Notes: a model not told the origin generated them from the letters alone. Shown: positions 503-30,767, counted from the first letter of the stretch. The stretch is 30,767 bases of DNA from Nitrospirota bacterium (GCA_035873215.1 JAYWMS010000393.1:1-30767), one strand, 5' to 3'. Numbers and translations are program-made.

Positions 503-1000
503 GTGATCGAAAGTGATGATTTTGTTCAGGCGCTGCAGGATATCGGGTTTGATTTATTTACGGGTGTTCCAGATACGATTCTTGGCGGAATTATTGCCAC
601 ATTGAGCGATCGGCAGCTCTATACTCCAGCCGTGCGTGAAGATGAAGCCGCTGCGATGGCAGCTGGGGCTTTTTTAGGAGGGAAAACTCCTGCCGTATTG
701 ATGCAGAACTCAGGGTTGGGGAATGCACTCAATGTTTTGATCTCGCTGCACTTGATCTATCGGATCCCGTCTTTGCTGATTGTGTCCTGGCGTGGGTTTG
801 AGGGAAAAGATGCGCCGGAGCATCTCGTCATGGGACAGACGATGCCTCAGTTGCTCGACTTGGTCAAAATTCCGCATCGCACATTGTCAAAGGACACGAT
901 GGTGGAGGACCTGAAGTGGACGGCACACACATTCAGGGAACAACGCATTCCTGTCGCGTTGTTATTGAAAAAGGGAATCGTCAAAACGGTACAACCATAA
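503..1000 (+). CDS. Phosphonopyruvate/sulfopyruvate decarboxylase alpha subunit (Ppd/ComD-like, TPP enzyme N-terminal PYR domain)
   Basis: Motifs FTGVPD, REDEA and LMQNSGLGN are typical of ComD/Ppd alpha domains. Confidence 0.85.
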   Translation: MIESDDFVQALQDIGFDLFTGVPDTILGGIIATLSDRQLYTPAVREDEAAAMAAGAFLGGKTPAVLMQNSGLGNALNVLISLHLIYRIPSLLIVSWRGFEGKDAPEHLVMGQTMPQLLDLVKIPHRTLSKDTMVEDLKWTAHTFREQRIPVALLLKKGIVKTVQP

Positions 1001-1002
1001 TA

Positions 1003-1083
1003 CGTGAACCGTAAATCGTAAGCCGTGAAACGACACATCGAAAATTCGGTTCTGACGTTTCGGATTACGGATGACTGGTCACG
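1003..1083. repeat. Inverted pair of degenerate heptamer tandem arrays (CGTRANN x4 ... reverse complement x4)
   Basis: Left arm CGTGAAC CGTAAAT CGTAAGC CGTGAAA (1003-1030). Right arm CGTTTCG GATTACG GATGACT GGTCACG (1056-1083). Confidence 0.55.
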
Positions 1084-1155
1084 ATTCATCACCTTGGAAG
1101 GATATATCAGTGAACGTCCATCTACTAGCGGGAATCCAATTGAGAGTAGGGAAAC

Positions 1156-1749
1156 ATGATGAGACCTGAAGAGGGGGTGATGCAAAGCCGGGCGCAGGCC
1201 ATGGCGGCGCTGCTTGATCAATTAACCGATCACCCGGTGATCGTTTGCAATGGGTTTCCGTCACGGGAAGCACAGAAGATCAACGATCGACCCGGGAATT
1301 TCTACATGATTGGGTCCATGGGCGTGACCGCGTCCATCGGATTGGGATTAGCGCTGGCTAAGCCCGATCAAAAAGTTGTGGTGTTTGATGGAGACGGGAA
1401 TGTGCTGATGGGGATGGGGACGCTTGCCACGATCGGGGCCTTGAAACCCAAGAATCTCATTCATGTCGTTTTTGATAACGAGGTGTATGGGACAACCGGC
1501 AATCAGCCAACCTATTCTCGGTTGGTTCGCTTGAATCATATGGCGAAGTCTGCAGGCTATGTAAATGTGGAGCGGGTGTGGGAACGGGAAGACATCGTGT
1601 ACGAATTCAAGGATATGTTAAAGCAAGATGGACCAAGCTTTTTGTTAATTAAAGTCAATGAACAGATTGAGGATGCTGATCGTGTGGCTCTGGATCCTGC
1701 TGATATCACGTCGAGGTTTAAAGCCGCCGTTGAATCTGCTTCATCATGA
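1156..1749 (+). CDS. Phosphonopyruvate/sulfopyruvate decarboxylase beta subunit (TPP-binding, ComE-like)
   Basis: TPP/Mg motif GDGNVLMGMG...DNEVYGTTGNQPT and FYMIGSMG. Confidence 0.85.
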   Translation: MMRPEEGVMQSRAQAMAALLDQLTDHPVIVCNGFPSREAQKINDRPGNFYMIGSMGVTASIGLGLALAKPDQKVVVFDGDGNVLMGMGTLATIGALKPKNLIHVVFDNEVYGTTGNQPTYSRLVRLNHMAKSAGYVNVERVWEREDIVYEFKDMLKQDGPSFLLIKVNEQIEDADRVALDPADITSRFKAAVESASS

Positions 1750-1802
1750 ATAACCTGATACTTCTTAATAGTGGTTGTACCTGAAAGGAAAATAGGTCTC
1801 TG

Positions 1803-2897
1803 ATGATACTCCTCAATCCAGGTCCCGTGAATGTTTCGGAGCGCGTTCGGAACGCATTGACGATGCAGGATATTTGTCATCGGGAATCCGAATGTGCGGA
1901 TCTCATGGCCAATATTCAGGACAAACTCCTGCGGGCTTTTGTGCCTGGTGCGGAATCGGACTACGTGGCGATTTTATTAACGGGCTCCGGGACGGCGGCG
2001 GTTGAGGCGACGATTCTCTCAGCGTTGCCTATGGGTAAGCGCTTCATCGTGATCAATAACGGGGTCTATGGCCAGCGGATTTCCTTGATGGTGGCCTCGC
2101 AGCGCCTGGGGACGTCTGAAATCAAGGCGGAATGGCATACTCGCCCCGATCCTGAAAAAGTTCGGTTGATTCTACAACAGCACAAGGAAGCCTATGCTGT
2201 TGCGATGGTCCATCATGAGACCACCTTGGGCCTCATCAATCCTGTAGAAGAAATCGCGAAGATCGTGGATGGCTTCAATCGAGTATTTATCGTGGATTCG
2301 GTGAGCGGATTGGCCGGCGAATCAATTGATATCGCCAAATCACACATGTATCTGGTGGCTGGCACGGCGGGAAAGTGTATTCAAGGCTTTCCTGGAGTCT
2401 CGTTTGTGCTGGCTCGCAAAGGCTACATGGACAAAATGTTGAAATTCCCCAAACGGTCCTGTTATCTGAACCTGGCGAATTACTATCAAGCGCAACAGCA
2501 AGGGAGCGTGCCGTTCACACCGGCGGTGCAAGTGTATTCCGCGTTTCATGAGGCGTTGACGGAGTTGCTGGAAGAAGGCGTGAATAATCGTATCCAACGT
2601 TATGCCCGTGGGGCAAAAGTGATTCGCGAAGGTATGGCAAGTTTGGGGGTTCAGGCTGTGTTGCCCGCAGAGGTACAATCCAATTCTTTGACGGCCTTTT
2701 ACCTGCCGGATGGGGTGTCGTACCAGAATCTGCATGATCAACTTAAAGCACGTGAGTTTGTCATCTATGCAGGTCAAGATCATTTAGAGTCCAAGATTTT
2801 CCGGGTGGCTAATATGGGCAATCTGGAAGAGAAAGATTTCCAAGCCTTCCTCTCAGCATTCGAAGAGGTCTTGCAAGGGGCACCTGCTCAAACATGA
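1803..2897 (+). CDS. Class V PLP aminotransferase, 2-aminoethylphosphonate transaminase (PhnW/AepZ-like)
   Basis: LNPGPV, GSGTAAVE, HHETTLG, DSVS, and the PLP lysine in GTAGKCIQGFPG. Confidence 0.85.
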   Translation: MILLNPGPVNVSERVRNALTMQDICHRESECADLMANIQDKLLRAFVPGAESDYVAILLTGSGTAAVEATILSALPMGKRFIVINNGVYGQRISLMVASQRLGTSEIKAEWHTRPDPEKVRLILQQHKEAYAVAMVHHETTLGLINPVEEIAKIVDGFNRVFIVDSVSGLAGESIDIAKSHMYLVAGTAGKCIQGFPGVSFVLARKGYMDKMLKFPKRSCYLNLANYYQAQQQGSVPFTPAVQVYSAFHEALTELLEEGVNNRIQRYARGAKVIREGMASLGVQAVLPAEVQSNSLTAFYLPDGVSYQNLHDQLKAREFVIYAGQDHLESKIFRVANMGNLEEKDFQAFLSAFEEVLQGAPAQT

Positions 2898-3625
2898 ATG
2901 CCGTGATTCTGGCTGCCGGCGTGGGGACGCGATTACATTCCCTTACCCAGCATCGCCCCAAATGTTTGATTGAACTTGGTGGACGATCGTTGCTGGCTCG
3001 GTATTTTGACGCCTTGGCTAAGGTGGCTATCCGGCACATTGCCATCATTGTTGGATACAAACACGAAATGATCCGCGAGGCGGTAGGGACGTTTTCTGGT
3101 TCACATTCTGTACAATTCATCCTGAATGAAGATTATCGAAGGGGGAGTGTCGGATCATTGTGGCGGGCCCGGGAAATGTTGGATGATGATGCCCTCATTA
3201 TGGATGCTGACGTGCTGTTTCATCAGGCGATTCTCGACCGGCTTGTACAGTCGGCCCATCCCAATGCGTTACTGATGGATGAAACCGTCCAACAAACGAC
3301 CGAAGAGTGCATGGTAGTGGTCCGGAATAACCGGGTTGTGGCTTTGACCAAGCGTATGCCCACGACCTATGATGTGGTGGGTGAGGGTGTCGGGTTTCTT
3401 AAGGTGGCTAAGGCTGATGGGCCGAAACTTATCCAGGCGGTAGAAGGGCGAATCAATTGCGGTCAGCTGGATATGGATTATGAAGATGCTTTGGAGGAAT
3501 TTTTTCGGTCGACGGAAGTCGGTTACGAAACGATAGGTGGTTTTCCCTGGGTTGAAATCGACTTTCCGGAGGATGTACAACGTGCGCAAAATGACGTGTT
3601 GCCCAAGTTGCATCAGCATGTTTAG
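2894..3625 (+). CDS. LicC/PntC-family cytidylyltransferase (phosphocholine/phosphonate CMP transferase)
   Basis: ILAAGVGTRL...PKCL signature, DAD motif and WVEIDFPED C-terminus. ATGA overlap with the upstream stop. Confidence 0.85.
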   Translation: MNAVILAAGVGTRLHSLTQHRPKCLIELGGRSLLARYFDALAKVAIRHIAIIVGYKHEMIREAVGTFSGSHSVQFILNEDYRRGSVGSLWRAREMLDDDALIMDADVLFHQAILDRLVQSAHPNALLMDETVQQTTEECMVVVRNNRVVALTKRMPTTYDVVGEGVGFLKVAKADGPKLIQAVEGRINCGQLDMDYEDALEEFFRSTEVGYETIGGFPWVEIDFPEDVQRAQNDVLPKLHQHV

Positions 3626-3680
3626 ATAATGGAAGCCTACAGCTTGTTAGAAACCTAAAACATTCTTCTTAGATCAGGTT

Positions 3681-5150
3681 ATGGACGGAACTCTTCACAA
3701 ATCGGAAGTTGGCACACTCGATACCGCGATTCTCCTGGCTTCTTCAGGTGTTTTTGATATTGGGGTGAATACTGAAACGCCTACGGTTGGCGCATTGACC
3801 CGTATTGGTGGGTTGACCCTATTTCAGCGTACGGTTTTTACCTTACAACGTGGCGGGATTTCACAAATTTTCGCGCTCGTCGGAGATGAAGAAGCAGAAT
3901 TGCGGTCTCTGATTCATGCGGACGATCGCGTACAAGCTGTGATTCGATGGTTGCCGACACGAGAATTTCCTCCATCGGACCCGCAAACTTGGGAAACTCT
4001 GGCTAGCGAAGTCAAAAGCTCCTGTTTAATCCTCGGGTGCCATATGGTGTTTTCTCCTGCGCTCGTTGAATCGATCCGCGAAGAGTCGCGTGATGGCCGG
4101 GTGGTCGTTGCAATCGGTCGGCCCGGAGAGCCGGGATGGACGGGAAACCCTGGGGTGTTGATGCGAGCCGATGCCTCTTCAACAGGGGTGTCACACCGCA
4201 TTGTGTTTCACGATAAACTTGGTCGACCGCATGCCGCTTCGCAAGAATCCGGAGAAGGGTTAGCCCCTGCGGTAGACTTGGTCGCGTTACCTTTTAGGCT
4301 GATGGGCATATCCGGCGCCTGGAATACACCTGAAACCGGTCCCATCCGATTGGCCCTGGAGCAGGCAGCTGCAGAAGGTGTTGTTCAAACCGTGTCGGCT
4401 TCTACCCATGGCTACGTGGATGTGCGTGGTAATAATGGTGCGAGCCGGGCTGAGCAGATGCTGTTTAAGTCGTTTCAAACGGTGAAGGGCAGTCTTGATG
4501 GTGTCATCGACCGATTTGTCAATCGCAAGTTTTCGGCTCTCTTTACTCGTGGGTTCATTCGCCTTGGCCTTTCTCCAAATACGATCACCATTCTTTCGAT
4601 GATGATAGGGTTGGCTGGCGCAGCTTGTTTTGCGACCGGCTCCTACCAGATCGGCATTGTCGGGGCCCTACTCTTTCAATTGGCGGTCATCATTGATTGC
4701 TGTGACGGTGAAGTTGCCCGACTCACCTTTGCAGAATCACCATTTGGCCAAGAACTTGATATCATTGCAGACAATATTGTTCATATGGCGATTTTTGCCG
4801 GAGTGGCCTGGGGTTCGTATCTGACAGGTCCATGGGCGCAGACGCATTGGCCCCTACTACTGGGCGCTATTGCGATCTTGGCCAACGGATTTTCCCTGTG
4901 GTGTGTGAATGTGGTGCGTCATATGAAAGGCAACCCGCTTCGTTGGAGTCGACTGAACGTGTGGCAACGAAAGCGATTGGAGTTTATTTTGGGGAATGTC
5001 GCGAACCGTGATTTTTCGGTTGTGGTATTACTGTTTGCCTGCGTCGGCATCTTGCCGTGGTTTCTTTGGTTGGGAGCGGTAGGCACAAGTTTTTTTGCAC
5101 TTTTCATGGCCTGGATTTTACGTCGAGCTCTTCTTCCCCGTTCTGCATAG
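3681..5150 (+). CDS. CDP-alcohol phosphatidyltransferase with a degenerate N-terminal nucleotidyltransferase-like domain
   Basis: DGEVARLTFAESPFGQELDIIAD matches D-G-x2-A-R-x8-G-x3-D-x3-D exactly. The C-terminal half is hydrophobic and multi-TM. The N-terminus is NTase-like (AILLASSG...IGGLTLFQR). Confidence 0.85.
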   Translation: MDGTLHKSEVGTLDTAILLASSGVFDIGVNTETPTVGALTRIGGLTLFQRTVFTLQRGGISQIFALVGDEEAELRSLIHADDRVQAVIRWLPTREFPPSDPQTWETLASEVKSSCLILGCHMVFSPALVESIREESRDGRVVVAIGRPGEPGWTGNPGVLMRADASSTGVSHRIVFHDKLGRPHAASQESGEGLAPAVDLVALPFRLMGISGAWNTPETGPIRLALEQAAAEGVVQTVSASTHGYVDVRGNNGASRAEQMLFKSFQTVKGSLDGVIDRFVNRKFSALFTRGFIRLGLSPNTITILSMMIGLAGAACFATGSYQIGIVGALLFQLAVIIDCCDGEVARLTFAESPFGQELDIIADNIVHMAIFAGVAWGSYLTGPWAQTHWPLLLGAIAILANGFSLWCVNVVRHMKGNPLRWSRLNVWQRKRLEFILGNVANRDFSVVVLLFACVGILPWFLWLGAVGTSFFALFMAWILRRALLPRSA

Positions 5151-5154
5151 CCCA

Positions 5155-6162
5155 GTGATCCGACTGGTATTTCTCATCATTGGTTTTCTCGCCCTCGTCG
5201 GTCTCGTTTGGCATATCGGACCTTCGCAGATATTCCTCGCGGTTGAACAACTCAGTTCTCTGGCGATTTTCGTCATCTTCCTCACCATGGTGCCGGTTTA
5301 TGGCCTTGAAGCCTATGGATGGCAACTCACTCTGGGCTCACTGACAACGCGTGTCGGATTTCTTCGGTTGTTCGCCGTCCGGATGGCCGGAGAAGCGATT
5401 AATATGACGACCCCCACCGGATATGTCGGTGGTGAGCCCATGAAAGCCTATCTCCTTCAACAGTACGGTGTGGATTTAGTTGATGGGCTGGCTTCGGTGG
5501 TCACTGCCAAGACCACGTTAGTATTAGCCCAAATCTTGTTTATGTTGATGGGTATGGGTTTGACGGTGTGGATACTAGGCAGCTCGGATTATAACCTATT
5601 AGCTGCCCTCGTCAGTGTGGGGATGTTGGCGCTGGGGCTCTTTCTTTTGTTTGCGGTCCAGCGGTACGGCATTGGTGCCGGTTTATTGCGTCTCTTGCGT
5701 GCGATCAAGATTCGGCTTGCTTTCCTGGAAGCACGAGAGGCCAAACTTCTGGAGTTGGATGAGACCATTCAAAAGTTCTATCGAGAACGGCATGCTACGT
5801 TTTTGTTTGCGGTCGGGGTGTTTTTTCTTGGATGGCTGGCTGAGGCCTTAGAAGTGTATGCCATTCTGTATTTCCTGGATGTTCAGGTTGACCTTCTGTC
5901 TTCCTTGGCTATTGCGGCGTTGGCGGTGCTGATTAAGGGTAGTGTTTTTTTTATCCCCGGGAGTCTAGGCGCACAAGAGGGAGGCTACCTGCTTTTGTTG
6001 TTGGCATTTGGCTATGACGATGTCACCGGGATTACCTTTGCCCTGTTGCGTCGATTGCGGGAGATTATTTGGATTGTTGTGGGTTTAGTGTTCCTTGCGC
6101 TTTTGAAGGATAAGAAAAAGTTGCCTCCGGCGGATACACCAATGCCGGTTCATGCAGAATGA
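5155..6162 (+). CDS. Flippase-like lysylphosphatidylglycerol synthase TM-region (UPF0104) membrane protein
   Basis: Multi-TM protein with TPTGYVGGEPMKAYLL and PGSLGAQEGG motifs. The in-frame GTG at 5155, just after the upstream stop, is preferred over the ORF-track start at 5095. Confidence 0.75.
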   Translation: MIRLVFLIIGFLALVGLVWHIGPSQIFLAVEQLSSLAIFVIFLTMVPVYGLEAYGWQLTLGSLTTRVGFLRLFAVRMAGEAINMTTPTGYVGGEPMKAYLLQQYGVDLVDGLASVVTAKTTLVLAQILFMLMGMGLTVWILGSSDYNLLAALVSVGMLALGLFLLFAVQRYGIGAGLLRLLRAIKIRLAFLEAREAKLLELDETIQKFYRERHATFLFAVGVFFLGWLAEALEVYAILYFLDVQVDLLSSLAIAALAVLIKGSVFFIPGSLGAQEGGYLLLLLAFGYDDVTGITFALLRRLREIIWIVVGLVFLALLKDKKKLPPADTPMPVHAE

Positions 6163-16158: not shown

Positions 16159-16653
16159 ATGCACAAGGTGCTTCTATCCGTCCTTTTTAGTTTAATTCTT
16201 ATTGCGGCTGGGTCTTCGGTCGCATTGGCTTTACAGTCCGGTGGGGTCGAGTTTGGGGATCTGGCAACCGGTTCAGTCGTTGGTCAACCATTTACTGCGT
16301 TAAATGTTGACCTTGAATACACCGCCTTGATGCTTGGTGGGAAGAAAGCCTGGTATCCTGGAACTGCGATTCTTGATCTTAGAAACGCAGGAACTGGAGC
16401 GCGGCCGATGTCCCCTGTCTTAATCAAAGTCACCAATACTTTGGATAGTGACCATGGGTTTGACATGTCTGCGGATTCACCGTTCGCGGCCCCAACTTCC
16501 ATGCATATCAAGATCGTGGTAAAGGCTGGAGAAACCAAGTATATTGGGATCCCCCTGAGCGACCTGACGTATGTCACTGCCCCTGGTAGTTTGAAGGTCA
16601 AATGTCAATTGCATAAGGGTCACCTTGGTTCGAATCTTCTGATCTTTAAGTAA
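16159..16653 (+). CDS. Secreted cupredoxin-fold protein, nitrosocyanin-like
   Basis: Sec signal (ALA), TNTLDSDHGF, VKAGETKYI and CQLHKGHLG. RBS GAGGAGG. Confidence 0.7.
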   Translation: MHKVLLSVLFSLILIAAGSSVALALQSGGVEFGDLATGSVVGQPFTALNVDLEYTALMLGGKKAWYPGTAILDLRNAGTGARPMSPVLIKVTNTLDSDHGFDMSADSPFAAPTSMHIKIVVKAGETKYIGIPLSDLTYVTAPGSLKVKCQLHKGHLGSNLLIFK

Positions 16654-20154: not shown

Positions 20155-20184
20155 TTGACACCTCCTGGGTGATTTGAGTAATTT
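20155..20184 (+). promoter_or_regulatory. Candidate sigma70 promoter of the multicopper oxidase
   Basis: TTGACA (20155-20160), an 18-nt spacer and TAATTT (20179-20184). Confidence 0.45.
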
Positions 20185-20283
20185 TTGCTTGATTTTTCTC
20201 GTCGAAATTCTGCACGGAGTAATTTGACTAAACTTCCTGGGTCTTTATCGTCCTGAGTCAGGTTTTTTTAAGGAGGCCGGTCC

Positions 20284-23200
20284 ATGTTTTACTTCAATCG
20301 TTCCAATGCCACATTTCCTGCGATCCTCGGTGTAGTGGGGACCCTCACTGGCATATTCTTCATGATTTCACTTTCTGGGGCTCTGGCTGAAATTCCCGAA
20401 TCGTCAGATCTCGTCCTGCATACGGCTATGAATCAAGCACCGCCGGGTTGGGCTGAACGTCTCAAGGGGCAGACCATTATTGAAAATGCGAAAGAAGGCA
20501 GGGCCGAGCGTTCTGCGCTGGTCGAACTCCAGCACGAGCGCATGATGCAGCAGATGGAAAAGGAGATGTCGCACGACTCCAATTCCGGTGGGTATAACAC
20601 GATGTCAAAGATTCACCAGTACGGCGGCGGAAAGGGCAACTATCTGCTGTCATCGGATGGTGAAATTGAACCAGTGTCCATGTCAGGCCAAGGAAAATGT
20701 CCGTCATCCGTTCCCGTGAAACACTATGACATTTCTGCCATTAATATAGAGATCACACTGAATCAGTGGCTCGATTACTATCCGGGCTACATGTATATCT
20801 TGACCGACAATATTGAAAATGCCCGCGAGGAAGAGGCAAAAAATGCTGAGGCTCGCGAATCAGAAGGTCACCATGACCCAGGTGCGGTGAAAAATGGAAT
20901 CCAAGGGCAATGGATTCAGCCGCTTGTGATTCGAGCGAACCAAGGAGATTGTGTCAAGATCACTTTACGTAATCAGCTGGAGTTTGGTGAAGATGTGAGC
21001 CTTCATATTCATGGCTCAAGCATGCTGGTGGCCCAAACGGGTCAACCGGCCACGACGACCAATCCGGATGCCATTGCCTACGGTCTTCCCGAAGAAGAAG
21101 ATGATGATGATGATGAAGAAGCTGAAGAATCCGACAAAGAAGTTGTTAAAAACCCCAATGAAGGTGTCATAGACATGGAATGGTATATCCATCCAGATAC
21201 CCAAGAGGGTGGTCGCCAATTCCATAGCTATAGCAATGATCGCGAATTGACCGTCATGGGCCTCTTTGGGGTGTTTGTCGTGGAGCCCAAAGGTTCCAAA
21301 TATCTAAATCCGTTGGGGTTGGGGAAAGCCACTGATATGTCTAGCGGCTGGCAGGCCATCATTCAAAATGGCATGGGCCCGGACTTTCGAGAATTTGCGC
21401 TGATTTATCATGAGGTTGGTGATGAAGCGTTTCGGCCGGTCAATAAGCATGGAGACTTTCTTCCACAACGAGATCCCTTAACTGATGCGTACCGGCCTGG
21501 TGCACGTGCCTTGAATTATCGAAGTGAACCGTTTGGTATCAACAATATGCATGTGCAACATGAATACTTTGGTTTTGAAGATGAATCGATGGCCTACAGC
21601 TCCTACACGTTTGGAGATGCTGCTCCGACGATTCCGCGAAGTTATTTAGGAGACCCAGCCAAGTTTCGTCTCGTTCATGGTGGATCGGAAGTGTTTCATT
21701 CACACCATCCGCATGGTGGTGCTATCCGATGGCCTAGAAGTCCACGAGCCATTGATCAAATGCCCATGTGGCACAAAGGTCAAAATGGCCCAGTGAAATA
21801 TCCATTGATTCGTGTCAAGACCGACCGCGTGGATGTGGAAGTGATCGGGCCATCAGAAGCCATTGATCTTGAAACGGAATGCGGATCAGGGTTGTGCCAA
21901 TGGCTGGCCGGAGACTTCCTCTTCCATTGCCATGTTGCGCATCACTATGTGGCAGGAATGTGGGGTTACTGGCGTGTGTATAACACGCTTCAAGTCCCTG
22001 GCGTGAAAAATGATGTCATGGCGCCTTTACGGGAATTGCCCGATCGAATTGGTCGAATTTCTCGTCCCGTGACCTCAGATAAACTCGTTGGGACGACCGT
22101 GGATTGGTTCGGGAAGAAATTCAACATTGTCGGGAAAAAGAAGAAATCCAATTGGAAGTCTAATCCTGCCGTCGTCAACATTTATGACTGGGTGGAAATG
22201 CAATTGCCGACGCGTGGGAAGCCAGGTCATACGGATGATGAAATCGGTCAGTTGAAGTCCTATGATGCCACCGTGATTGATTGGACCTGGAAGGGGAATC
22301 GTGCGCTTAGTGAGAGAGAAAGTACGACAGACAATCCCAAGTACCATCCGAAGTGGCAAGGCTATAAAGCCGGAAAGCGTCGGGCAATTTGGTTTGAACC
22401 AACAACCGGTAAAGTCGCCTGGCCGTGGTTGACTCCGCATTTTGGGAAGAGAGTTCCCTTTTCACCCGATCGGAACCCGGCTCCATGGTTGGAAATGATT
22501 CATCTGGATGAAGATGGCCAGCCGTCTGTGGAACCAGCCAAACCAGGTGAAAACGGTCGCTGGAGCCTTTGCCCGGATCGTGCTGGTTCTCAAAAATATA
22601 ATGTGCATTTTATTAAACTTCCGATTGAGTTATCGGCAGCCCAAGGTGATCAACCAGCAATCGTTGACCCCAACGGGTTGTTGTATGTGTCTCATGATGA
22701 AGAAGAGGCAATACGGGCTAACAATGATTTAAAAGTGCCGTTTGTGTTCCGTGCCAACATTTATGATTGCATGGATTGGATTTTAACGAGTGAATGGCTG
22801 GATGATGACATTACGAACTTCCAGTCATCCAAAATCAATACGCATTTTCACTTTGTCCAGTTTGACAATCAGGCCTCTGATGGCGTGATTACAGGGTTTT
22901 CCTATGACCAATCCATGCGGCCCTTTACCCAGTTCGAGAAAAAAACGGATAAGGGGTTGCCGCTTCCAATGAATGCGAAATTTACGAAGGCCGGTAAAAA
23001 AGGCCAGCGGACAATCCATGTATCGAATGCCTCACAGTATCATGTGGGAACGGTGATTTTGGTTGGCGCGGACAATGTGAAGGGTAACGAGGTGAAGCGC
23101 ATTGTTGCCATCAAGGGTAAGAAATCGGCTTCAACTGGCGTTGGAATCTATACAGTTGGATCCGGAGATACACTTGAAAAGATTGCGCTCTCCCATGGGA

Positions 23201-25449
23201 CCAGCTTCGGTGAATTGAAAGAAATGAACGAATTGGCGAATGAAAATCTAATTTTCGTTGGCCAAAAAATCAAAGTTCCCGGTAAGGGTGGCAAGGCCTT
23301 CGCCGGTGGTCCTGGGACACTGACCTTCAAATCACCCTTAAAGCATAATCATCCTGTGGGTGATATTGTGACGGTGGAGTTCGTGCGCCAGCGGTTCTGG
23401 GTCGATGCCGACGTGGGGTCGGTCTTTTGTCATGACCATGCCTTTGGTGGAACCACCTGGCCTCACGGTGCAGTGTGTACCTTCATAATTGAACCCTTTG
23501 GCTCGACCTATCATGATCCAGTTACTGGTGCACCGAAACGGACAGGCCCCGTGATGGACATCCATACGATTGAGCCGGTGGGATATGGTGTCAGTGGAAG
23601 TTTCCGTGAACTCATGGTCCAAATAATGGACACGGTTCCACATACGGTGAACGTGGTGACTGCCGGGAATCCTCCCGGTCAGCCCATTGAAGTGGCGTTG
23701 GAAGCAGGCCGGACGGTATCGTTCCAAATGCCGCCGAACAATATGATCAAGATGACGCCGATGCCATTCCTGAATGGCGGGACTCATACAACCGGGGGTG
23801 CGTTGAATTTCAGAGCCGAGCCGTTTGCTCAACGGTTGGCGAACAATCCGGCCACATCACAGATCTTTAGCAGCAAAACGCACGGGGATCCCAGCACGAT
23901 TATGGTCCGTGCGTATTTGGGGGACTCCATTGTCTTCAGATTGGTTGATGTGACGATGAATGAGAGCAACGTCTTCACCATTTCTGGTCATGCGTTTTTG
24001 ACTGAGCGCTATGCCGGTGATGCCAATCGGAAAAATTCAATCCACATTGGTATTGCAGAACGGTATGACCTGGTTGTGGCACAAGCAGGAGGTCCACGGC
24101 TGCAACCTGGAGATTATATGTACTTCAATGGGCGCAATTCAAAATTTTCAGAAGGGTCTTGGGGTATTATTCGGGTGTTGGAAAAAGAAGTTCCTGACCT
24201 GAAGCCATTGCCCAACGCAGGGTTTGGCCAAACCGGGATTAAGAAACCTTTACCGATTTGTCCTAAAGGGGCACCGGTGAAGAACTTTAATGTTGTGGCT
24301 ATTGATTTCCCACAAATGACCTTTAACCCGAATGTGGAAGAGGCCATTGAAGTGGACTTTGAACGGAAAATCGAAGTTCAAAATCCGGATGCGAAAATCT
24401 ATATCCTCGAGGAGGAAGTGGCGAAAGTATCCGGGAAATACCAGCCCATGCCGCTGACGTTGCGGGCGAATGTGGGTGATTGTTTAAAAGTAAAACTGAA
24501 AAACAAGATGAAGAAGAGCCGTGCGTCATTCTCGGCCTTCAGCTTGGCGTTTAATCCTAAAGATTCTCAGGGAGTCAATCTCGGCAACAATCCAGGTGAT
24601 CAAACGATCGCTCCGGGGAAGACCCGAACCTATACCTACTATGCTGATCCGTTCTTTGGGGAGACGCAATCCCTGGTTTGGGATTGGGGTAATGTGGCCA
24701 TGAATCCTCGGAACGGCTTGTTTGGCGGGATCGTGATTGGTCCTAAAGGATCCCAATATCGTGATCCGCAGACCGGTGCGGATATCTCATTAAAGAATAG
24801 CTGGAAGGCTGATGTGATCGTTGATCGGACCATTCCTGGGAATGAAGCACGCCAGAACTATCGCGATGTTGCCTTATTCTTCCAGGAAGAAGACAACATC
24901 ATTGGGACAAGTTTCATGCCCTATGTCCAGAATGTTGCAGGGTTAATTGGTATAAATTACAGGTCGGAGCCTTATCTGTACCGAGAAGAGGAAGGCTGCT
25001 CGCTGGGTAGGATGTTCCAGCCATGCCAGGTAGATGATCCGAAAGATCCTGTGACACCACTCATTCAAGCTCATGCAGGAGACCCAGTTCGCATCCATGT
25101 GTTTGGTGCGAGCAATGAGCAGAACGGGATGTTCAGTGTTGAAAAACATGAATGGCCGATTGAGCCGTTTATGGGCGGTGCCGATCACATCAGTGTCGTG
25201 GAATTTGCTGGCTCAGAAGGAATAGATGCGTTCATTCCTTCGGCTGGTGGCCGGTTTGCCCTATCCGGGGATTATGTGTATAGCAACGCCCGGTTGCCAT
25301 ATTCACAGTCAGGACAATGGGGGTATTTCCGCGTTTTGCCGGCAGGGGATCAACGTATTCTTCCCCTGGGTGGAGTGAGTCCCGGTGTAAAAGAAGCCAA
25401 GGTATCCCAACCTGAAAAAGTCCTCGCTCAGCCAGTTGCGTTTAAATAA
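20284..25449 (+). CDS. Giant exported six-domain multicopper oxidase (MnxG/ceruloplasmin-like architecture) with inserted LysM domain
   Basis: Sec signal and RBS AAGGAGG. Copper motifs [28 protein letters not shown] and CHDH. Six RAxxGD-initiated cupredoxin repeats. LysM at aa ~956-999. Confidence 0.85.
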
Positions 25450-25480
25450 CGCGTTGTAGTTGTTCGAGTCTGACAGGAAT

Positions 25481-25517
25481 AGCGGGGAAGCCGAGGTTCG
25501 GCTTCCCCGCTTTTTTT
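25481..25517 (+). terminator. Intrinsic terminator after the MCO
   Basis: 14-bp stem AGCGGGGAAGCCGA/TCGGCTTCCCCGCT followed by a T-run. Confidence 0.9.
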
Positions 25518-25594
25518 CACATGTGTTTGGAATTGCGTAGGGTCAGTTGCGACAATATTGTGAGACGGTAGACTCGATTGAGAAGGAGGGTTTC

Positions 25595-26515
25595 ATGAAG
25601 GTCCGGGTTTGTAGGTTGTTGATCAGTCTCTTGGTATGGCTGTGCAGCGTCTCATTCGCATGGCCGTATGAAGAAAGACAGGTGGTCAATGGAGGGACCA
25701 TAAAGGGGAAAGTTTTGATCACAGGGAATACGCCAAGGCCCATGGCCTTTAATTTGGTGACCATCCCGGACGCGGTTTACTGTGGCCGTATTTCCACGGG
25801 TACAGGATGGCGAATCGTGGAGGATTTTATCATTGGGTCGAATGGGAGCCTTAAGGATGTCGTGGTCATGCTCAAGGACGTCAAACAGGGAAAGCCCTTT
25901 GATTTGCCAAAGGTCAGAGTTGATGCGATGGATTGTGATTTTTTGCCCTTTATCAATGTCTTGCGCGACAAAGATGAGGTTACCGTGATCAATATGGATC
26001 CCGTGGAACATGACATCCAGGGCTATGAAACGGCTCGTGTTCGTGGAGCACGGATTCTATTCAATCGCCCTCTCCCTATGAATCCGTTTCATAAGGTCCT
26101 TGGACTGTTGAACAGCCACAAGCACATGGCTGGTAAACCCATGATTGAAAAAATTCATCTGCGTAAGGGACGAAATATCTTTGTCATGCAATGCGGGTTT
26201 CATCCCTACATGTTTTCCTGGGGTGTGGTGATCCACAATCCCTACTATTTCATCACCAAGGAAGATGGAAAATTTGAAATTTCTGATGTTCCCCCTGGAA
26301 ACTATATCTTGCAGGTTTGGCATGCCGGGATGAAAGAATACCTTGAGCGTCCTGTCACTGTGAAGCCGAAGGGGACTTTGTCAGAAAATTTTGTGTATGA
26401 GGCACCGAAGGGGCGACGGAGCGTCCATGAAATGATTGATAATACCCGATTTGGGTTGGAATTACTTGGAGAGGGTGTGGAAGTGATTCCATCACTGAGA
26501 CTCCAGAAACCTTAA
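25595..26515 (+). CDS. Secreted cupredoxin / carboxypeptidase-regulatory-like (transthyretin-fold) protein, paralogue 1
   Basis: AAGGAGG RBS before the ATG at 25595, signal peptide, GGTIKGKV, NMDPVEH...QCGFHPYM and GKFEISDVPPGNY.L.VWH. Confidence 0.8.
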   Translation: MKVRVCRLLISLLVWLCSVSFAWPYEERQVVNGGTIKGKVLITGNTPRPMAFNLVTIPDAVYCGRISTGTGWRIVEDFIIGSNGSLKDVVVMLKDVKQGKPFDLPKVRVDAMDCDFLPFINVLRDKDEVTVINMDPVEHDIQGYETARVRGARILFNRPLPMNPFHKVLGLLNSHKHMAGKPMIEKIHLRKGRNIFVMQCGFHPYMFSWGVVIHNPYYFITKEDGKFEISDVPPGNYILQVWHAGMKEYLERPVTVKPKGTLSENFVYEAPKGRRSVHEMIDNTRFGLELLGEGVEVIPSLRLQKP

Positions 26516-26519
26516 AAGT

Positions 26520-27434
26520 ATGACCCCGTTGAGACAAGTCACACAATTAGCCATTTTGGGTTTCTTTCTCGGAAATTTCCCTGCTTTGGGATATGAGGTA
26601 CAAGAAGTCAAAGAGGGTGGGACGATAACTGGCCGCGTGAAGTTAACAGGAACGGTTCCGGACCCCAAAGCCTATAATCTTGTGACCTTTCCTGATCCGG
26701 AATATTGTGGGCGAATTTCGAATGGTAAAGGATGGCGGCTGCTACGAGATTTTCGGGTTGACGAAGAAGGGGGTTTGCAGAATGTCGTGGTCCTGCTCGA
26801 GGGAGTAAAGCACGGAAAGCCGTTTTCTCTGTCGATCCCGCGCATCGAAGCCCGAGATTGTCGATTCCTGCCATTTACGACTGTGGTGCGAAGCGGGCAT
26901 GGGGTAGAAGTCATCAACATGGACCCTGTCATGCATGATATCCAGGCTTATGAAACCTCTATGTCGTCCGGTCCCCGCGTCTTGTTCAATTTGCCGCTGC
27001 CATTCAATAACATGCATCATCGAGGTGATTTACGAGCGATGCATGATCATAAGCCCGGTTCATCCTTGGTCCGCCAGTTTATGTTGAGTAAAAAACGTCG
27101 AACCTTTGTGATGCAATGTGGTTTTCATGCCTACATGGAAAGTTGGGCGATTGCCGTGGAAAATCCGTATTATGTCATGACTGATGTTCACGGAAAATTT
27201 TTTCTTGATGATATTCCTCCTGGGACCTACGACCTTCGGGCTTGGCATCCCAGTGTGAAACACGTCATCAAACATACCGTGATTATTGAGCCCGAGAGTG
27301 AATTGGTGGTTGATTTTGAGTTGCCGTCACCTGGGCGGAAAAAGACAGTGCTGACTGTTCGAACTCCTCCCCGGTTTACCCCAGCCGCTCTAGGGCGTGA
27401 ATTTACCATTGAACCGATTCTTGAGCGTCAATAG
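26520..27434 (+). CDS. Secreted cupredoxin / carboxypeptidase-regulatory-like protein, paralogue 2
   Basis: Tandem paralogue of 25595 (NLVTxPDxxYCGRISxGxGWR), with NMDPVMH...QCGFHAYM and GKFFLDDIPPGTY. Confidence 0.8.
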   Translation: MTPLRQVTQLAILGFFLGNFPALGYEVQEVKEGGTITGRVKLTGTVPDPKAYNLVTFPDPEYCGRISNGKGWRLLRDFRVDEEGGLQNVVVLLEGVKHGKPFSLSIPRIEARDCRFLPFTTVVRSGHGVEVINMDPVMHDIQAYETSMSSGPRVLFNLPLPFNNMHHRGDLRAMHDHKPGSSLVRQFMLSKKRRTFVMQCGFHAYMESWAIAVENPYYVMTDVHGKFFLDDIPPGTYDLRAWHPSVKHVIKHTVIIEPESELVVDFELPSPGRKKTVLTVRTPPRFTPAALGREFTIEPILERQ

Positions 27435-27437
27435 CGT

Positions 27438-28112
27438 ATGGGTTTCCCTCACCCCTGTGTGTATGTGAAGGAGTTAGTCCTAACTCCCTCCCTCCTTGCT
27501 TGGCATCTCGGATTGTCCATTTTCATATTAGGTTTGACAGGAAATCTGGCGCTGGCATTAGACCAACCCGGTCCTCCCGTGAACGACCTGGTTGAGTTTT
27601 CGGCGAAAATGAAATGGCGAGTTGGAGGGAAAACCGCCAAGGCTCAATTATTCGTTCAGAAGGATCGGTATCGAATTGAACATTTAGGCGGAATCAAGAC
27701 AGATCTGGGTTATGCCGGAGTGACCATTGTGCGGCTCGATCAGCAAAAGGTCTGGTATGTGATCTCCCAGCGTCGACTAGTCATGGCTGTGCCTGTGACA
27801 ACGGAATTCTTATTGCCATTTTCAATCCGACTAGAAGGAGAAGTTTCAAGGAATCTGCTTGGCGATGGGTTTGTGGGGAAGCAGCGGGCACAATTGTATG
27901 AAGTTGGAGTTGATCAAGAGGGGCATCGCGAAAGGTACTATGAGTGGGTGGATGCGGAACGGAACATCCTTTTAAAGTTGGTCAGTCTAGATCGTGATTG
28001 GTTTGTGGAATATGAACATGTGGTCCTCTCCAAACAACCTGATTATTTTTTTAATCCCCCCTTGGGATATAAAAAATATGAGGCGAGTACGCGTCAAGCA
28101 GAGAAGGGGTAA
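27438..28112 (+). CDS. Exported DUF4412-like / LolA-like beta-sheet protein
   Basis: Signal-like hydrophobic segment ending ALA, FSAKM...KDRYRIE...VTIVRLDQQKVW pattern and C-terminal DYFFNPPLGYKK. Start uncertain. Confidence 0.55.
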   Translation: MGFPHPCVYVKELVLTPSLLAWHLGLSIFILGLTGNLALALDQPGPPVNDLVEFSAKMKWRVGGKTAKAQLFVQKDRYRIEHLGGIKTDLGYAGVTIVRLDQQKVWYVISQRRLVMAVPVTTEFLLPFSIRLEGEVSRNLLGDGFVGKQRAQLYEVGVDQEGHRERYYEWVDAERNILLKLVSLDRDWFVEYEHVVLSKQPDYFFNPPLGYKKYEASTRQAEKG

Positions 28113-28117
28113 CGTGC

Positions 28118-29476
28118 ATGATGAGTAATTGCAAATATGTTTCGGTCTCGTTAGCTATCCTCGTGACTTGTTTTGGCATTTCAATCATTGGGGCCGTTGG
28201 GGGCCAGGGTACGGAAAGCCTTCAAGAAGCCAAGGCTGCGTTTGATCAAGGCAAGTTTGAACAGGTACTGGGGTTGATTGAGCCACTTATTACGGCAGGC
28301 ATTGATCCTAGAGCCAGCCTGCGATTGAAGATGTTGAGCCTTATTCGAATGGGGGAAACCAGTGATGGCGTGGATGTATACGATTACTGGACGAAGGATT
28401 CGTGGAAAAAGGATGAAGCGTTGCTTCGTGAGTTGGCACTTCACACCATCCTTCCTCTTCGGACTGATATGCGGGAACAAATGCGAGGTGCAGCCTATAC
28501 CGCACTCAAAGAAATATCGTCTTCCGAGGTCATTCCCTTCATGGAGGAAGGATTGACTGATGGGTCTGGGATGATTCGGGTCTTAGTGGCTGAGGGCCTG
28601 AGTCATTATGAATCCGCGCTCGATTCACCGAGATTTCAAGAAGCCCTAAAGGATCCTGCGGGGTTGGTTCGTGTGACGATACTTAAAGGGTTAGGACGGT
28701 CTGGTGCTCAATCCAGAGTCTCACTTATCACTCCACTTTTGGAGGATAAGCAGGAAGTCGTCCAGGTGGCCGCATCCGGTGCCTTGTTTATGTTGGGACA
28801 GACAAAACACTGGGACCGCATTAAAAAGGCAACGGAGGTGGATGAGGGATATGAGCGTGGATCAGCGCTGAGGATCTTAGGGGAACTGGGTGACCCTAGG
28901 GCGTTGCCGATTCTGAAGCAAGGCGTATTGGATCGGCAACCCTCGATTCGAGCAGCCACTGCTGCTTCATTAGGACGACTCGGATTGTCTGAAGCTGTCT
29001 CGATCCTCATCCCTATGTTGGCAGATCCTGTTCCGGCTGTACGAAGTGTCGTGGCTGTCACGCTAGGCCAATTAAAGGCTGAAGAAGCCATTCGTCCTTT
29101 AACGAGAACTTTGCATGATCGAAATGACGGGGTACGGGTGGCTGCTATCGCGGGGCTTCTGAAACTGAATACTCCTTTTCAGGTGGTGTCTCATACTGTC
29201 CAAGAATTGATAGGAAGCACGAATCCCGGGCTGAGGTCTTCCGTGGCGAAGGCCCTTGGCAATGGACGGGCTCGTGATGTGGCGGGGCTCCTTACTTTGC
29301 TATTGAATGATCCCATTCCCAAGCCCAGGATTTCGGCTTCTCGGTCCCTGGGTCGAGTCGGAGGCCGAGAGGTCATACAGGTATTGAAACGCACGCTTCG
29401 AGATTCCGATGCTGCGGTGAAAGTTACAGCCGCTGGGTCGATCGCACGAATTCTTACCCAAGCAGAAAAAACTTAA
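28118..29476 (+). CDS. Exported HEAT-repeat (PBS-lyase-like) protein
   Basis: N-terminal hydrophobic signal or anchor and about 10 repeats of L..D....VR..AA.ALG. Confidence 0.85.
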   Translation: MMSNCKYVSVSLAILVTCFGISIIGAVGGQGTESLQEAKAAFDQGKFEQVLGLIEPLITAGIDPRASLRLKMLSLIRMGETSDGVDVYDYWTKDSWKKDEALLRELALHTILPLRTDMREQMRGAAYTALKEISSSEVIPFMEEGLTDGSGMIRVLVAEGLSHYESALDSPRFQEALKDPAGLVRVTILKGLGRSGAQSRVSLITPLLEDKQEVVQVAASGALFMLGQTKHWDRIKKATEVDEGYERGSALRILGELGDPRALPILKQGVLDRQPSIRAATAASLGRLGLSEAVSILIPMLADPVPAVRSVVAVTLGQLKAEEAIRPLTRTLHDRNDGVRVAAIAGLLKLNTPFQVVSHTVQELIGSTNPGLRSSVAKALGNGRARDVAGLLTLLLNDPIPKPRISASRSLGRVGGREVIQVLKRTLRDSDAAVKVTAAGSIARILTQAEKT

Positions 29477-29528
29477 CAAAATTAAGTAGTTGGTTCGATG
29501 TTGCTGAAAGCAAGAGGTGGTACGTTAC

Positions 29529-29557
29529 TTGACACCCTTTCCTCATCTTGTTATATA
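29529..29557 (+). promoter_or_regulatory. Strong candidate sigma70 promoter
   Basis: TTGACA (29529-29534), a 17-nt spacer ending in TGn, and TATATA (29552-29557), followed by an AT-rich region. Confidence 0.65.
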
Positions 29558-29707
29558 AAAAAATGATTACTTTTTTAAAAATTAACAAAAAATTCAGCCT
29601 TTCCAAGCACAAGCATTGGATTGGCGAGACGGCATTAGAGTCAGGAGCCGTCGTGTTTTATTCCCCCCCGCTTTCGTCAACAATTATTCTCAACTAGGAG
29701 GAAAGTT

Positions 29708-30508
29708 ATGCGACATGGTCGGTCTCTTACTTTGTCTGTTTTGCTGGGAGGCATTCTGCTTGCCATCCCCTTGATTGCCCAGGCAGGTGGTACGATTAAA
29801 GGAAAGGTCACGTATTCTGGAAAGGCAATTCCCGCAAAAGAATTTGCTTTTTCTAAATTCCCGAATCCCGCATTTTGCAAGAAAAATCCAAGCCAAAAGG
29901 GTGATGACACCCGGTTGTTGAAAGAGGTTGAAGTTGACGGGAGCAAAGGGTTAAAAAATGCCATTGTGTCTGTCCGAGATATTAAGACCAAAGGATTAAA
30001 GAAATCCTATAAGCCAAAAGTGATGGCGAAATTATGTGAGTTTCTTCCCTTTACTGGGGTTCTCGTTAATAAAGGGAAATTCTATGTGGAGAATACTGAT
30101 TCCGATCCCGATGATCCGAAATCGGCTGAGGGTGTGCTTCATAACCCCCACAGCTTTGATGTATTGGGTGCGAAATCCTCAACGTTGTTTAACATTGGCT
30201 TGGCCAAAAAAGGCGATAACTTAGACAAGAAGATTAAAATGCGCATGGCCAGGAAGGGTTCTGTGCTTCGGTTGCAATGTGACCAGCATGAATTCATGCA
30301 GGCGTGGTTCTTGCCCGTAAAAAATATGCACTTTGCCACGTCTGGCGCCGATGGGAGTTTTGAAATTAAAGATGTTCCCGCTGGCAAACACAAAGTCTTA
30401 GCCTGGCATCCAGTTGCCGGTAACGTGGAAATGAACGTTGAAGTTAAAGACGGTGCGACCGTAGAAGTAACGTTTGATATTAAGAAGAAAAAGAAATTTA
30501 AAGGGTAA
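29708..30508 (+). CDS. Secreted cupredoxin / carboxypeptidase-regulatory-like protein, paralogue 3 (Lys-rich)
   Basis: AGGAGG RBS, signal peptide (AQA), GGTIKGKV, VLHNPH...QCDQHEFM, GSFEIKDVPAG and C-terminal KKKKKFKG. Confidence 0.8.
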   Translation: MRHGRSLTLSVLLGGILLAIPLIAQAGGTIKGKVTYSGKAIPAKEFAFSKFPNPAFCKKNPSQKGDDTRLLKEVEVDGSKGLKNAIVSVRDIKTKGLKKSYKPKVMAKLCEFLPFTGVLVNKGKFYVENTDSDPDDPKSAEGVLHNPHSFDVLGAKSSTLFNIGLAKKGDNLDKKIKMRMARKGSVLRLQCDQHEFMQAWFLPVKNMHFATSGADGSFEIKDVPAGKHKVLAWHPVAGNVEMNVEVKDGATVEVTFDIKKKKKFKG

Positions 30509-30535: not shown

Positions 30536-30573
30536 AAAAAAGGCAGCAGCGGTTTTCCGTTGCTGCCTTTTTT
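30536..30573 (+). terminator. Intrinsic terminator (possibly bidirectional)
   Basis: A6, an 11-bp stem GGCAGCAGCGG/CCGTTGCTGCC with one G-U pair, a TTTT loop and T6. Confidence 0.9.
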
Positions 30574-30767
30574 ATTTACATGCGTATGCGGGTTGTTTGT
30601 CAGTTCATATTCCCACCTTGCGTTCCCAACTTGACCCTCGTTAAGATCCTTCGTTTATCATGCATGTTTGAGTGAGTCGTAACTTGTAAGGATCGCCTGT
30701 GCCTCGAGAATTGTCGCTTGGTGAGATATTTCAACTTGGCTACTATTGGGAAACCAAAATCCTGCTC

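Follow-up and report, generated by a model that had tools for sequence, protein, structure and literature searches.

The conserved core of a six-gene locus in Nitrospirota is a giant multicopper oxidase (MCO) together with an exported neighbour that has the fold and ligands of a type-1 copper protein. The locus occupies positions 20284-30508 of a 30,767-nucleotide stretch of DNA from a Nitrospirota bacterium (GCA_035873215.1 JAYWMS010000393.1:1-30767; hereafter the window), with its genes in the order MCO, cupA, cupB, p224, HEAT, cupC, all on the + strand. Judged from the genomes sampled, the conserved unit is the oxidase plus a cupredoxin, and it is class-wide rather than specific to nitrite oxidisers. 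The explanation preferred here, tentatively, is that the locus specifies a periplasmic copper redox module in which the products of the cup genes would pass electrons to the MCO, where O2 would be reduced at a trinuclear copper cluster. An initial annotation, made from the sequence, had described six co-oriented genes with export signals. All six open reading frames (ORFs) are indeed present in that arrangement, and each product has an N-terminal hydrophobic segment preceded by K/R, the heuristic that was used here in place of SignalP to call export.

The same annotation had recognised three paralogues, each with an upstream His and a C-x2-H-x2-M motif, as hidden type-1 copper proteins, and both the relationship and the assignment are upheld. 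The paralogues are related at 43% and 30% identity (tblastn E 1e-80 to 1e-21), and residues C79, C130, H155, C216, H219 and M222 (cupA numbering from the TTG start) are invariant among the three. C-x2-H-x2-M is the ligand loop of amicyanin, and the ligand His of the cup proteins precedes an Asn or Asp, as it does in classical cupredoxins. In a diverse 91-sequence family alignment, which purposely took in members without the exact C-x2-H-x2-M motif, C63, C114, N133, D135, H139, C200, H203 and M206 (cupB numbering) are at least 90% conserved. H139, C200, H203 and M206 are 100% conserved among orthologues, and C63 and C114 are likely to form a disulphide. Against 1.8 billion cluster representatives, a cup profile has 13,667 matches at E <= 1e-3, of which 158 reach E <= 1e-30, and the C-x2-H-x2-M motif is present in nearly all of the full-length relatives.

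The fold of the cup proteins points the same way. An AlphaFold2 model of cupB (predicted local distance difference test (pLDDT) 88, predicted template-modelling score (pTM) 0.86) contains a cupredoxin at residues ~91-213, which Foldseek matches with probability 1.0 and template-modelling (TM) scores by target of 0.55-0.70 to N. maritimus 5fc9, amicyanin, plastocyanin, auracyanin, AcoP, MauL, CopI and the cupredoxin domain of three-domain NirK. The family profile, using sequence alone, also finds 5fc9 (E 1.3e-7), amicyanin (E 4e-4) and NirK in the PDB. The curated models PF00127 (Copper-bind) and PF13473 (Cupredoxin_1) match none of cupA, cupB and cupC, and the existing annotation of the paralogues is 'carboxypeptidase regulatory-like' or 'hypothetical'. 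The assignment of the cup proteins as type-1 copper proteins, presumably with copper bound, is nevertheless well supported by the modelled fold and the ligands.

The cupredoxin domain of cupA is flanked by an N-terminal strand and a C-terminal CarboxypepD_reg-type beta-sandwich. The PF13620 (CarboxypepD_reg) profile scores 24.3-30.7 bits on the cup proteins, below its cut-off of 32.3, and covers profile positions ~29-81 only, at the C-terminal end. A home-made repeat-unit profile places its first strand on an N-terminal GGTIxGxV in all three paralogues, with insignificant scores. The likely architecture is that of a cupredoxin inserted into a split immunoglobulin (Ig)-like domain. Two of the paralogues also carry an H-x8-H-x-H motif (cupA H182, H191 and H193, 26090-26125; cupB H166, H175 and H177, 27015-27050). 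It lies in a low-confidence insert that directly precedes the Cys loop; orthologues of cupA and cupB show 87-96% conservation of it, and cupC has none. The start of cupA is almost certainly the ATG at 25595, behind GGAGG, rather than the mechanical TTG at 25547.

The giant MCO is also as first described, with matches to Cu-oxidase_3 (PF07732, 35.8 bits), Cu-oxidase_2 (PF07731, 27.5 bits) and Cu-oxidase (PF00394, 21.5 bits), all exceeding their cut-offs, and to LysM. Its nearest solved relative is Bacillus MnxG (PDB 9bxa; phmmer E 1.1e-73). The match comprises six stretches that cover most of both proteins, several of these being cross-matches among repeated domains, which limits what they say of collinearity. 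Because it scores 118.3 bits against the NCBIfam MnxG equivalog model NF041487, for which the cut-off is 3100, the MCO is to be seen from its sequence as a relative of MnxG and not as an orthologue. The protein is acidic overall, whilst cupC is strongly basic.

The copper ligands of the MCO are strongly conserved. The type-1 motif and the His pairs within H472-S-H-H-P-H477 (H472xH474 and H475xH477) and H854xH856 are invariant across ~70 orthologue alignments. A further pair, H1050xH1052 in C1049-H-D-H1052, is His in 58-59 of ~69 orthologues, the remainder being mostly alignment gaps beside the LysM insert. This inventory fits one type-1 copper and one trinuclear cluster, which would lie between domains 2 and 3. 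H241xH243 was also considered as a copper pair and was rejected, since H243 is Asn in most orthologues. The LysM domain, which matches the LysM domains of LytE and LytN, is a lineage-specific insert, as only 44 of 66 orthologous loci carry it; it is absent in the copies of canonical Nitrospira. The insert probably pins the MCO to peptidoglycan, and the cell-wall attachment that had been suggested for the system would fit such tethering.

Synteny of the locus in relatives holds both in a comparison of 70 loci and at loci from other orders. The 70 loci, from named Nitrospirales and Nitrospira metagenome-assembled genomes (MAGs), carry the MCO at 68-85% identity, and wherever a Nitrospirales locus offers 1.2 kb of flank or more, cupA is the gene immediately 3' of the MCO. 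Some 40 loci show the complete order MCO-cupA-cupB-p224-HEAT-(one extra gene)-cupC, with cupC 2-5 kb 3' of HEAT; canonical Nitrospira loci comprise cupA and the MCO, which is sometimes present as a tandem pair. Among 301 genomes sampled from the phylum (300 and the window's own), the MCO occurs in 83 of the 84 genomes of the class and in none of the ~217 from the rest of the phylum. By group, the counts are 24/24 for the window's family, 50/50 for a second family and 8/9 for the remaining genomes of the class.

The MCO does not follow nitrite oxidation. NxrA was not found in seven genomes of other orders of the same class (96-99% complete), all of which carry the MCO, by a query that as a control finds NxrA at 95% identity in genome G088; the idea that the MCO tracks nitrite oxidation was accordingly rejected. 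The MCO loci were examined in five of the seven. These five genomes have 1-3 MCO copies each, at 52-62% identity to the window MCO, and for 8 of the 11 copies 1-3 cup genes lie no more than a few hundred bases further 3'; the products of these cup genes keep CGxHxxM in 15/15 cases and DPxxH[N/D] in 14/15. p224 and HEAT were not found at the MCO loci of these genomes. It is because the NxrA-lacking orders retain the MCO-cup pair that the module appears to be class-wide. The link to nitrite or N-oxide chemistry entertained in the initial annotation is weakened by the same retention, which shifts weight from nitrite roles to the handling of O2 and reactive oxygen species (ROS) or to metal oxidation.

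Two or three MCO paralogues, at times in tandem, are present in many genomes (examples being loci L037 and L046 of canonical Nitrospira and those of G108, G231, G269 and G277). Each distant MCO copy tends to have its own cup gene or genes, and the module seems to duplicate as a unit. Two loci titled 'Nitrospinota bacterium' (L009 and L049) have an MCO 84% identical to that of the window and are probably mislabelled Nitrospirales MAGs.

Table 1. Features of the locus, with positions counted from the first nucleotide of the window
Feature	Position	Strand	Details
Two sigma-70-like promoter candidates 5' of MCO	20157..20251	+	TTGACA-18-TAATTT at 20157; TTGACT-16-TATCGT at 20224-20251; consensus matches only
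Shine-Dalgarno AAGGAGG before MCO	20270	+	
MCO, 1721 aa, exported, MnxG-like, putatively six-domain	20284..25449	+	Pfam Cu-oxidase families; PDB 9bxa MnxG E 1.1e-73; ligands kept in ~70 orthologues
Poly-acidic loop in MCO domain 1	21091..21147	+	E/D run from aa 270; read from sequence
Sole canonical type-1/trinuclear motif of MCO, H548-C549-H550-x3-H554-x4-M559	21925..21960	+	aligns with MnxG HCH block; invariant in 70/70 alignments
LysM domain of MCO, aa 956-999	23149..23280	+	PF01476 54.5 bits, full profile 1-43; between H854xH856 and H1050xH1052
Intrinsic-terminator-like hairpin	25481..25518	+	14 pairs (10 GC) then T7; 32 nt past MCO stop
cupA, 306 aa, exported	25595..26515	+	ligand loop CGFHPYM at 26192-26212; conserved H-x8-H-x-H insert
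cupB, 304 aa, paralogue	26520..27434	+	putative ligands H139, C200, H203, M206; loop 27117-27137; H166, H175, H177 conserved
p224, exported, LolA/DUF4412-like half-barrel fold	27438..28112	+	model and Foldseek
HEAT-repeat solenoid, exported	28118..29476	+	PF13646 135.8 bits
Sigma-70-like site before cupC	29530..29558	+	TTGACA-17-TATATA; consensus match only
cupC, 266 aa, basic paralogue (K+R 46, D+E 27)	29708..30508	+	H145(N)-x-H148; loop CDQHEFM at 30278-30298; no His-rich insert
Terminator-like hairpin 3' of cupC	30546..30574	+	

The layout of the locus suggests that it is not transcribed as a single unit. The MCO is preceded by a spacer of 303 nt with sigma-70-like sites and a strong Shine-Dalgarno sequence (Table 1). 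A sigma-54 promoter at this position, an idea prompted by Pseudomonas mnxG and by the sigma-54 regulator near the Manganitrophus MCO, was rejected, as a -24/-12 search gave nothing above chance. Downstream, cupA, cupB, p224 and HEAT are tightly packed, with gaps of 3-5 nt, and a 231-nt AT-rich spacer (29477-29707) lies between HEAT and cupC. Because the first hairpin divides the MCO from cupA, the six genes probably form two or three transcription units. In place of the 231-nt spacer, ~40 related loci hold a gene for a 674-aa exported thioredoxin-like DUF255 protein, consisting of Thioredox_DsbH and a six-hairpin-like part (L011:19155-21179); its best match elsewhere in the window's own genome (contig C229) is only 38% identical.

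Transcript data from N. moscoviensis bear on this layout, with the genes equated to MCO, cupA, cupB and cupC by size, position and annotation, so that homology is inferred. The putative MCO (NITMOv2_3987) has transcript rank 19, at ~45x the median, whilst ranks 130 and 147 belong to the two genes directly 3' of it, each annotated 'conserved exported protein' (309 and 305 aa), and a 265-aa exported protein near a second MCO ranks 20 (Mundinger 2019 supplement, PMC6606698). Transcript level falls ~four-fold between the putative MCO and these two genes, which would fit the hairpin. Near-identical fragments of MCO, HEAT and cupC occur on short contigs in two metatranscriptome libraries, weak evidence that bears on the presence of the sequences in RNA rather than on operon structure or level. 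The passages matched in the N. marina proteome, sponge-symbiont and Oslofjord papers do not mention the module.

In the explanation that we prefer, as possible rather than probable, the core of the module would be a giant MnxG-type MCO and a dedicated blue-copper partner, cupA, to which cupB, cupC, a LolA-fold protein and a HEAT-repeat protein would be lineage additions. The exported MCO would be held on peptidoglycan via the LysM insert, and the HCH motif would connect its one type-1 copper (C549, H554, M559) with a trinuclear cluster at the domain 2/3 interface, where O2 would be converted to water. Each cup protein would have a single type-1 site (His, Cys, His, Met) on a cupredoxin inside an Ig-like sandwich, and would act as a one-electron shuttle that docks at the type-1 site of the MCO, as pseudoazurin and azurin do with copper nitrite reductase. 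The most likely flow would be from a periplasmic donor pool to cupredoxin, then to the MCO and finally to O2. The module would thus be an O2-consuming, non-proton-pumping electron sink, useful for oxygen and ROS protection and for redox balancing, with p224 and HEAT as non-redox assembly or scaffold factors.

A type-1 site has essentially one job, single-electron transfer. Since a type-1 protein adjoins a type-1-bearing oxidase across the entire class, the simplest role for the cup protein would be that of redox partner of the MCO. Electron exchange between the two is plausible from gene linkage; copper binding by the sites, physical contact between the proteins, the course of the electrons and the identity of the donor or substrate in the cell are likewise inferred. 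Support comes also from the respiratory neighbourhood of the locus in a closed relative, described below, and from contig C274 of the window's own genome (L083:1446-4163), where two tandem distant cup members, which match Pfam Cupredoxin_1 and Copper-bind at a sub-threshold 17-23 bits, lie directly 3' of a dihaem cytochrome c. A complex prediction that paired mature cupA with MCO residues 130-620, which span domains 1-2, whereas the type-1 site plus trinuclear cluster belong to domains 2-3, gave a score of 0.14, the mark being 0.34; this counts neither way.

Several points weigh against this explanation. The hairpin between the MCO and cupA is a strong terminator candidate, and the putative counterpart genes of N. 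moscoviensis differ in transcript level; both observations speak against a complex of fixed 1:1 stoichiometry. The H-x8-H-x-H motif hints at a second metal site, which would be superfluous for a simple shuttle. The cup family is not dedicated to MCOs, because it is large and many of its members lie far from any MCO; the genomic contexts of two distant members held unrelated neighbours only, and there are at least nine cup-family genes in the window's own genome (contigs C274, C368, C152, C426 and C301 and C114:5328-6239 are among the sites). Six-domain MCOs such as MnxG and ceruloplasmin take electrons directly from metal ions, and a protein donor, though known for NirK, is to our knowledge not known for this class. 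Finally, no energy is conserved when O2 is reduced in the periplasm by donors that are themselves periplasmic, which is hard to square with transcription at the top of the range.

The direct use of metal ions by such enzymes is central to an unlikely alternative, in which the MCO would be an Mnx-like metal oxidase. It would oxidise Mn(II) or Fe(II) directly with O2, at the cell wall or in the periplasm, the Mn(III) or Mn oxides serving for superoxide defence, and the cup proteins with the tri-His loop would be copper-bearing subunits in the role of MnxE and MnxF rather than free shuttles. MnxG is the nearest solved relative of the MCO and its equivalog model is the only NCBIfam oxidase model to match strongly, although the 118 bits obtained are far from 3100. 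The conserved H-x8-H-x-H of cupA and cupB and the acidic loop of the MCO would suit metal handling by the complex, and the MCO-cup pair is also present in the NxrA-lacking orders of the class. However, the cup proteins appear to be type-1 cupredoxins, whereas MnxE and MnxF are small accessory subunits with type-2 copper and are not known to be cupredoxins.

Published work also bears on this alternative. Lücker et al. in 2013 proposed Mn(III)-based ROS defence for a 'putative multicopper oxidase' (PMC3578206), and a Nitrospinae protein named MnxG in ocean metaproteomes was the second most abundant Nitrospinae oxidoreductase of a Pacific transect, with its peak at the top of the oxygen-deficient zone (Saunders 2022, PMC9477243). 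All eight (8/8) Ca. Manganitrophaceae genomes hold 1-3 MCOs as well as CarboxypepD_reg proteins (Yu 2022, Table S6, PMC9040806). For one of these MCOs, expression reaches the 95th percentile when Mn(II) is being oxidised; this MCO has a co-varying sigma-54 regulator two genes away and a LolA-like gene seven genes away (PMC9040806). The Manganitrophaceae genes are likened to those of the window by description. Yu et al. themselves favour Cyc2 and porin-cytochrome complexes for Mn lithotrophy, leaving the MCOs unexplained, and the high rank of the putative N. moscoviensis MCO was recorded in plain nitrite growth.

Yu et al. (2022) also regard transfer to a periplasmic carrier instead of O2 as a requirement that hinders MCO-based Mn lithotrophy. 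The cup proteins could be carriers for an MnxG-type oxidase, although we consider this improbable: at its type-1 site the MCO would accept single electrons, with Mn(II), Fe(II) or some other one-electron compound as donor, and pass them not to O2 but to cupA and cupB, from which they would enter the respiratory chain by way of the bd-like oxidases and cytochromes c whose genes lie 3' of the locus in relatives. If this were true, the MCO-cup pair would be an energy-conserving metal:cupredoxin oxidoreductase common to the nitrite-oxidising Nitrospirales and to the NxrA-lacking, possibly Mn-lithotrophic, sister orders.

The wider genome provides further context for these possibilities. The source organism is a marine nitrite-oxidising Nitrospirales, in agreement with its first description as a probable nitrite oxidiser. 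Its genome encodes NxrA at full length (1562 bits against the Kuenenia protein), from a gene that lies outside the window. The genome (91% completeness) has five bd-like oxidase matches and no match to a haem-copper oxidase. The window ends 260 nt beyond cupC. The locus of a relative from the same family, whose genome is closed (L079, G088:C1:2056500-2073500), extends co-oriented 3' of cupC with genes for an O-methyltransferase, a DUF420 protein, a PCP_red-domain protein, a bd-like oxidase and a DUF3047 protein, and further 3' with two FGE-sulfatase-fold genes, another bd-like oxidase gene and three genes for cytochromes c, the last of them with a fused EB_dh domain. In the window's own genome, orthologues of these downstream genes are on small contigs (C62, C25, C448 and C221), and the same island is probably present there in fragments, assembly breaks having cut the window short. 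The arrangement agrees with the cluster depicted by Lücker et al. for Nitrospina gracilis and Ca. N. defluvii (PMC3578206). The description of the system as haem-free therefore stands for the six genes, none of whose products has a CxxCH haem motif, but fails for the wider locus, given the bd-like oxidases and cytochromes c of the relative.

An island of this kind also accommodates a looser relation between its genes, in which the MCO would act alone on a small substrate and the cup proteins would be general high-potential carriers, running between cytochromes c, nitrite oxidoreductase (NXR) and bd-like oxidases and being mere neighbours of the MCO within a respiratory island. This would be in keeping with the terminator between the MCO and cupA, with the separate promoter-like site of cupC, with the presence of cup paralogues beside cytochrome c genes elsewhere in the genome and with the continuation of the island into bd-like oxidases and cytochromes c. 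It also recalls Lücker et al., who suggested NXR or the oxidase as the partner of the cupredoxin-like proteins encoded in the nxr cluster (PMC3578206). We nevertheless think it doubtful, since MCO and cup genes stay adjacent even where MCO identity has fallen to 52-62%, in different orders, at loci with several MCO copies and where NxrA is lacking. That exceeds expectation for unrelated neighbours; p224, HEAT, LysM and the DUF255 gene, in contrast, come and go.

The two accessory proteins look like non-redox components, because p224 retains H82 as its sole conserved metal-type residue and the HEAT protein has no conserved His or Cys. The description of p224 as DUF4412-like is vindicated by its fold, although no Pfam family, PF14371 (DUF4412) included, matches its sequence at E <= 0.1. 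A model of p224 (pLDDT 83) resembles AFDB clusters named DUF4412 (E 4e-10 to 1e-8, TM 0.5-0.7) and also matches LolA, RseB, MucB and ependymin-related proteins with probability 1.0; its language-model look-alikes named DUF4412 score 0.95-0.98. The HEAT solenoid was correctly recognised, with PF13646 matched in six stretches and PF02985 at 84.5 bits.

Proteins of this kind could be chaperones, and a role of the whole locus in copper handling has also to be considered. The MCO would then be a periplasmic CueO-type cuprous oxidase, the cup proteins CopI-like copper binders that detoxify or deliver the metal by means of their His/Met-rich loops, and p224 and HEAT chaperones. The Foldseek match of cupB to the copper-resistance cupredoxin CopI and the conserved His-rich insert of cupA and cupB are consistent with such a role, as are the heavy dependence of these organisms on copper enzymes and the FGE-like genes further 3' in the relative. 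FGE is a copper enzyme fold, of which NirV is a relative. The role is highly improbable all the same: neither the locus nor its immediate surroundings encode a copper sensor, an efflux ATPase for copper, CusCBA or CopA/B, the His-rich insert is missing from cupC, the MCO appears to have six domains against three in CueO, and its putative counterpart is highly transcribed without copper stress.

The genes 5' of the MCO are housekeeping genes unrelated to the module: those for the large and small subunits of glutamate synthase, a metallo-beta-lactamase, a DUF192 protein, a Rieske protein and a class-IV aminotransferase. Two further features of the window may be recorded. A 164-aa ORF at 16159-16653 matched no Pfam family. 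At 503-6162 there is a run of genes for a split TPP-enzyme (phosphonopyruvate-decarboxylase-like), a class-V aminotransferase, a nucleotidyltransferase, a CDP-alcohol phosphatidyltransferase and LPG-synthase-TM, which resembles a pathway for phosphonolipid head groups.

Most nitrite oxidation on the planet is due to Nitrospira and Nitrospina, whose handling of O2 is poorly understood. A canonical haem-copper oxidase, for which the genome studied here gave no match, is also reported missing in the literature for many relatives, and the enzyme that gives ocean Nitrospinae their O2 affinity has been called unknown (PMC8115632). The doubt expressed in the initial annotation about the novelty of the family was justified. 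The oxidase and its island have been in the literature since 2013, when Lücker et al. described an exported MCO as 'highly conserved' between Nitrospina and Nitrospira and clustered with genes for cupredoxin-like proteins, bd-like oxidases and conserved unknowns (PMC3578206). The gene is apparently among the top 20 transcripts of N. moscoviensis, and twelve years after that first mention the substrate of its product is still a matter of proposal. What is new here is the widespread cupredoxin-in-Ig architecture backed by fold and profile, the class-wide and NXR-independent linkage of MCO and cupredoxin, the assignment of a LolA fold to p224, the variable LysM insert and the layout of transcription units. 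The hidden blue-copper neighbour, the retention of the pair in NxrA-lacking orders and the LolA-fold and HEAT partners make the 'putative Mn oxidase' biochemically testable. Such work would bear on O2 scavenging, on ROS defence, on possible Mn and Fe cycling by nitrifiers and on the use of MCOs in Mn-lithotrophic relatives.

Comparison with known systems places the module between several of them. It shares with the Mnx complex of Bacillus sp. PL-12 (MnxG with an MnxE3F3 ring, PDB 9bxa) a giant MCO of what appear to be six cupredoxin domains, similar over its full length (E 1.1e-73), in which the HCH/type-1 block and the HxH pairs align, and also the clustering of the oxidase gene with those for small metal-binding accessory proteins. 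However, the window MCO is ~500 aa longer, with a LysM insert and an acidic loop, and would be periplasmic in a Gram-negative cell rather than in a spore coat, and its accessories are 30-kDa cupredoxin-Ig, LolA-fold and HEAT proteins rather than MnxE and MnxF. The precedent for single-electron transfer from one type-1 site to another is provided by pseudoazurin or azurin with NirK, and by the cupredoxin-fused three-domain NirK of Thermus scotoductus (PDB 6hbe), and the cup model and profile both match the NirK cupredoxin domain. NirK differs in reducing nitrite at a type-2 catalytic copper, whereas the putative acceptor in the window would have a trinuclear cluster of the O2-reducing type. Amicyanin and MauL have the same fold as the cup proteins, the same short C-x2-H-x2-M loop and the same N-terminal His-Asn/Asp ligand. 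In contrast to amicyanin, a free-standing domain of ~105 aa, the cup domain would sit in a CarboxypepD_reg-type sandwich and has an extra conserved Cys pair and, in cupA and cupB, the H-x8-H-x-H motif; methylamine dehydrogenase genes are not present at the locus. CopI, like cupA and cupB, is a cupredoxin with an extra His/Met-rich metal-binding stretch, but the window lacks its copper-resistance gene context, and the domain architecture and pattern of conservation differ. The closest counterpart in print may be the cluster of NXR, bd-like oxidase, cupredoxin-like and MCO genes in Nitrospina gracilis and Ca. Nitrospira defluvii (PMC3578206). Although the architecture of the partner proteins was not described there, and nxrA of the window's organism lies elsewhere in its genome, that cluster seems from its description to be the same kind of island.

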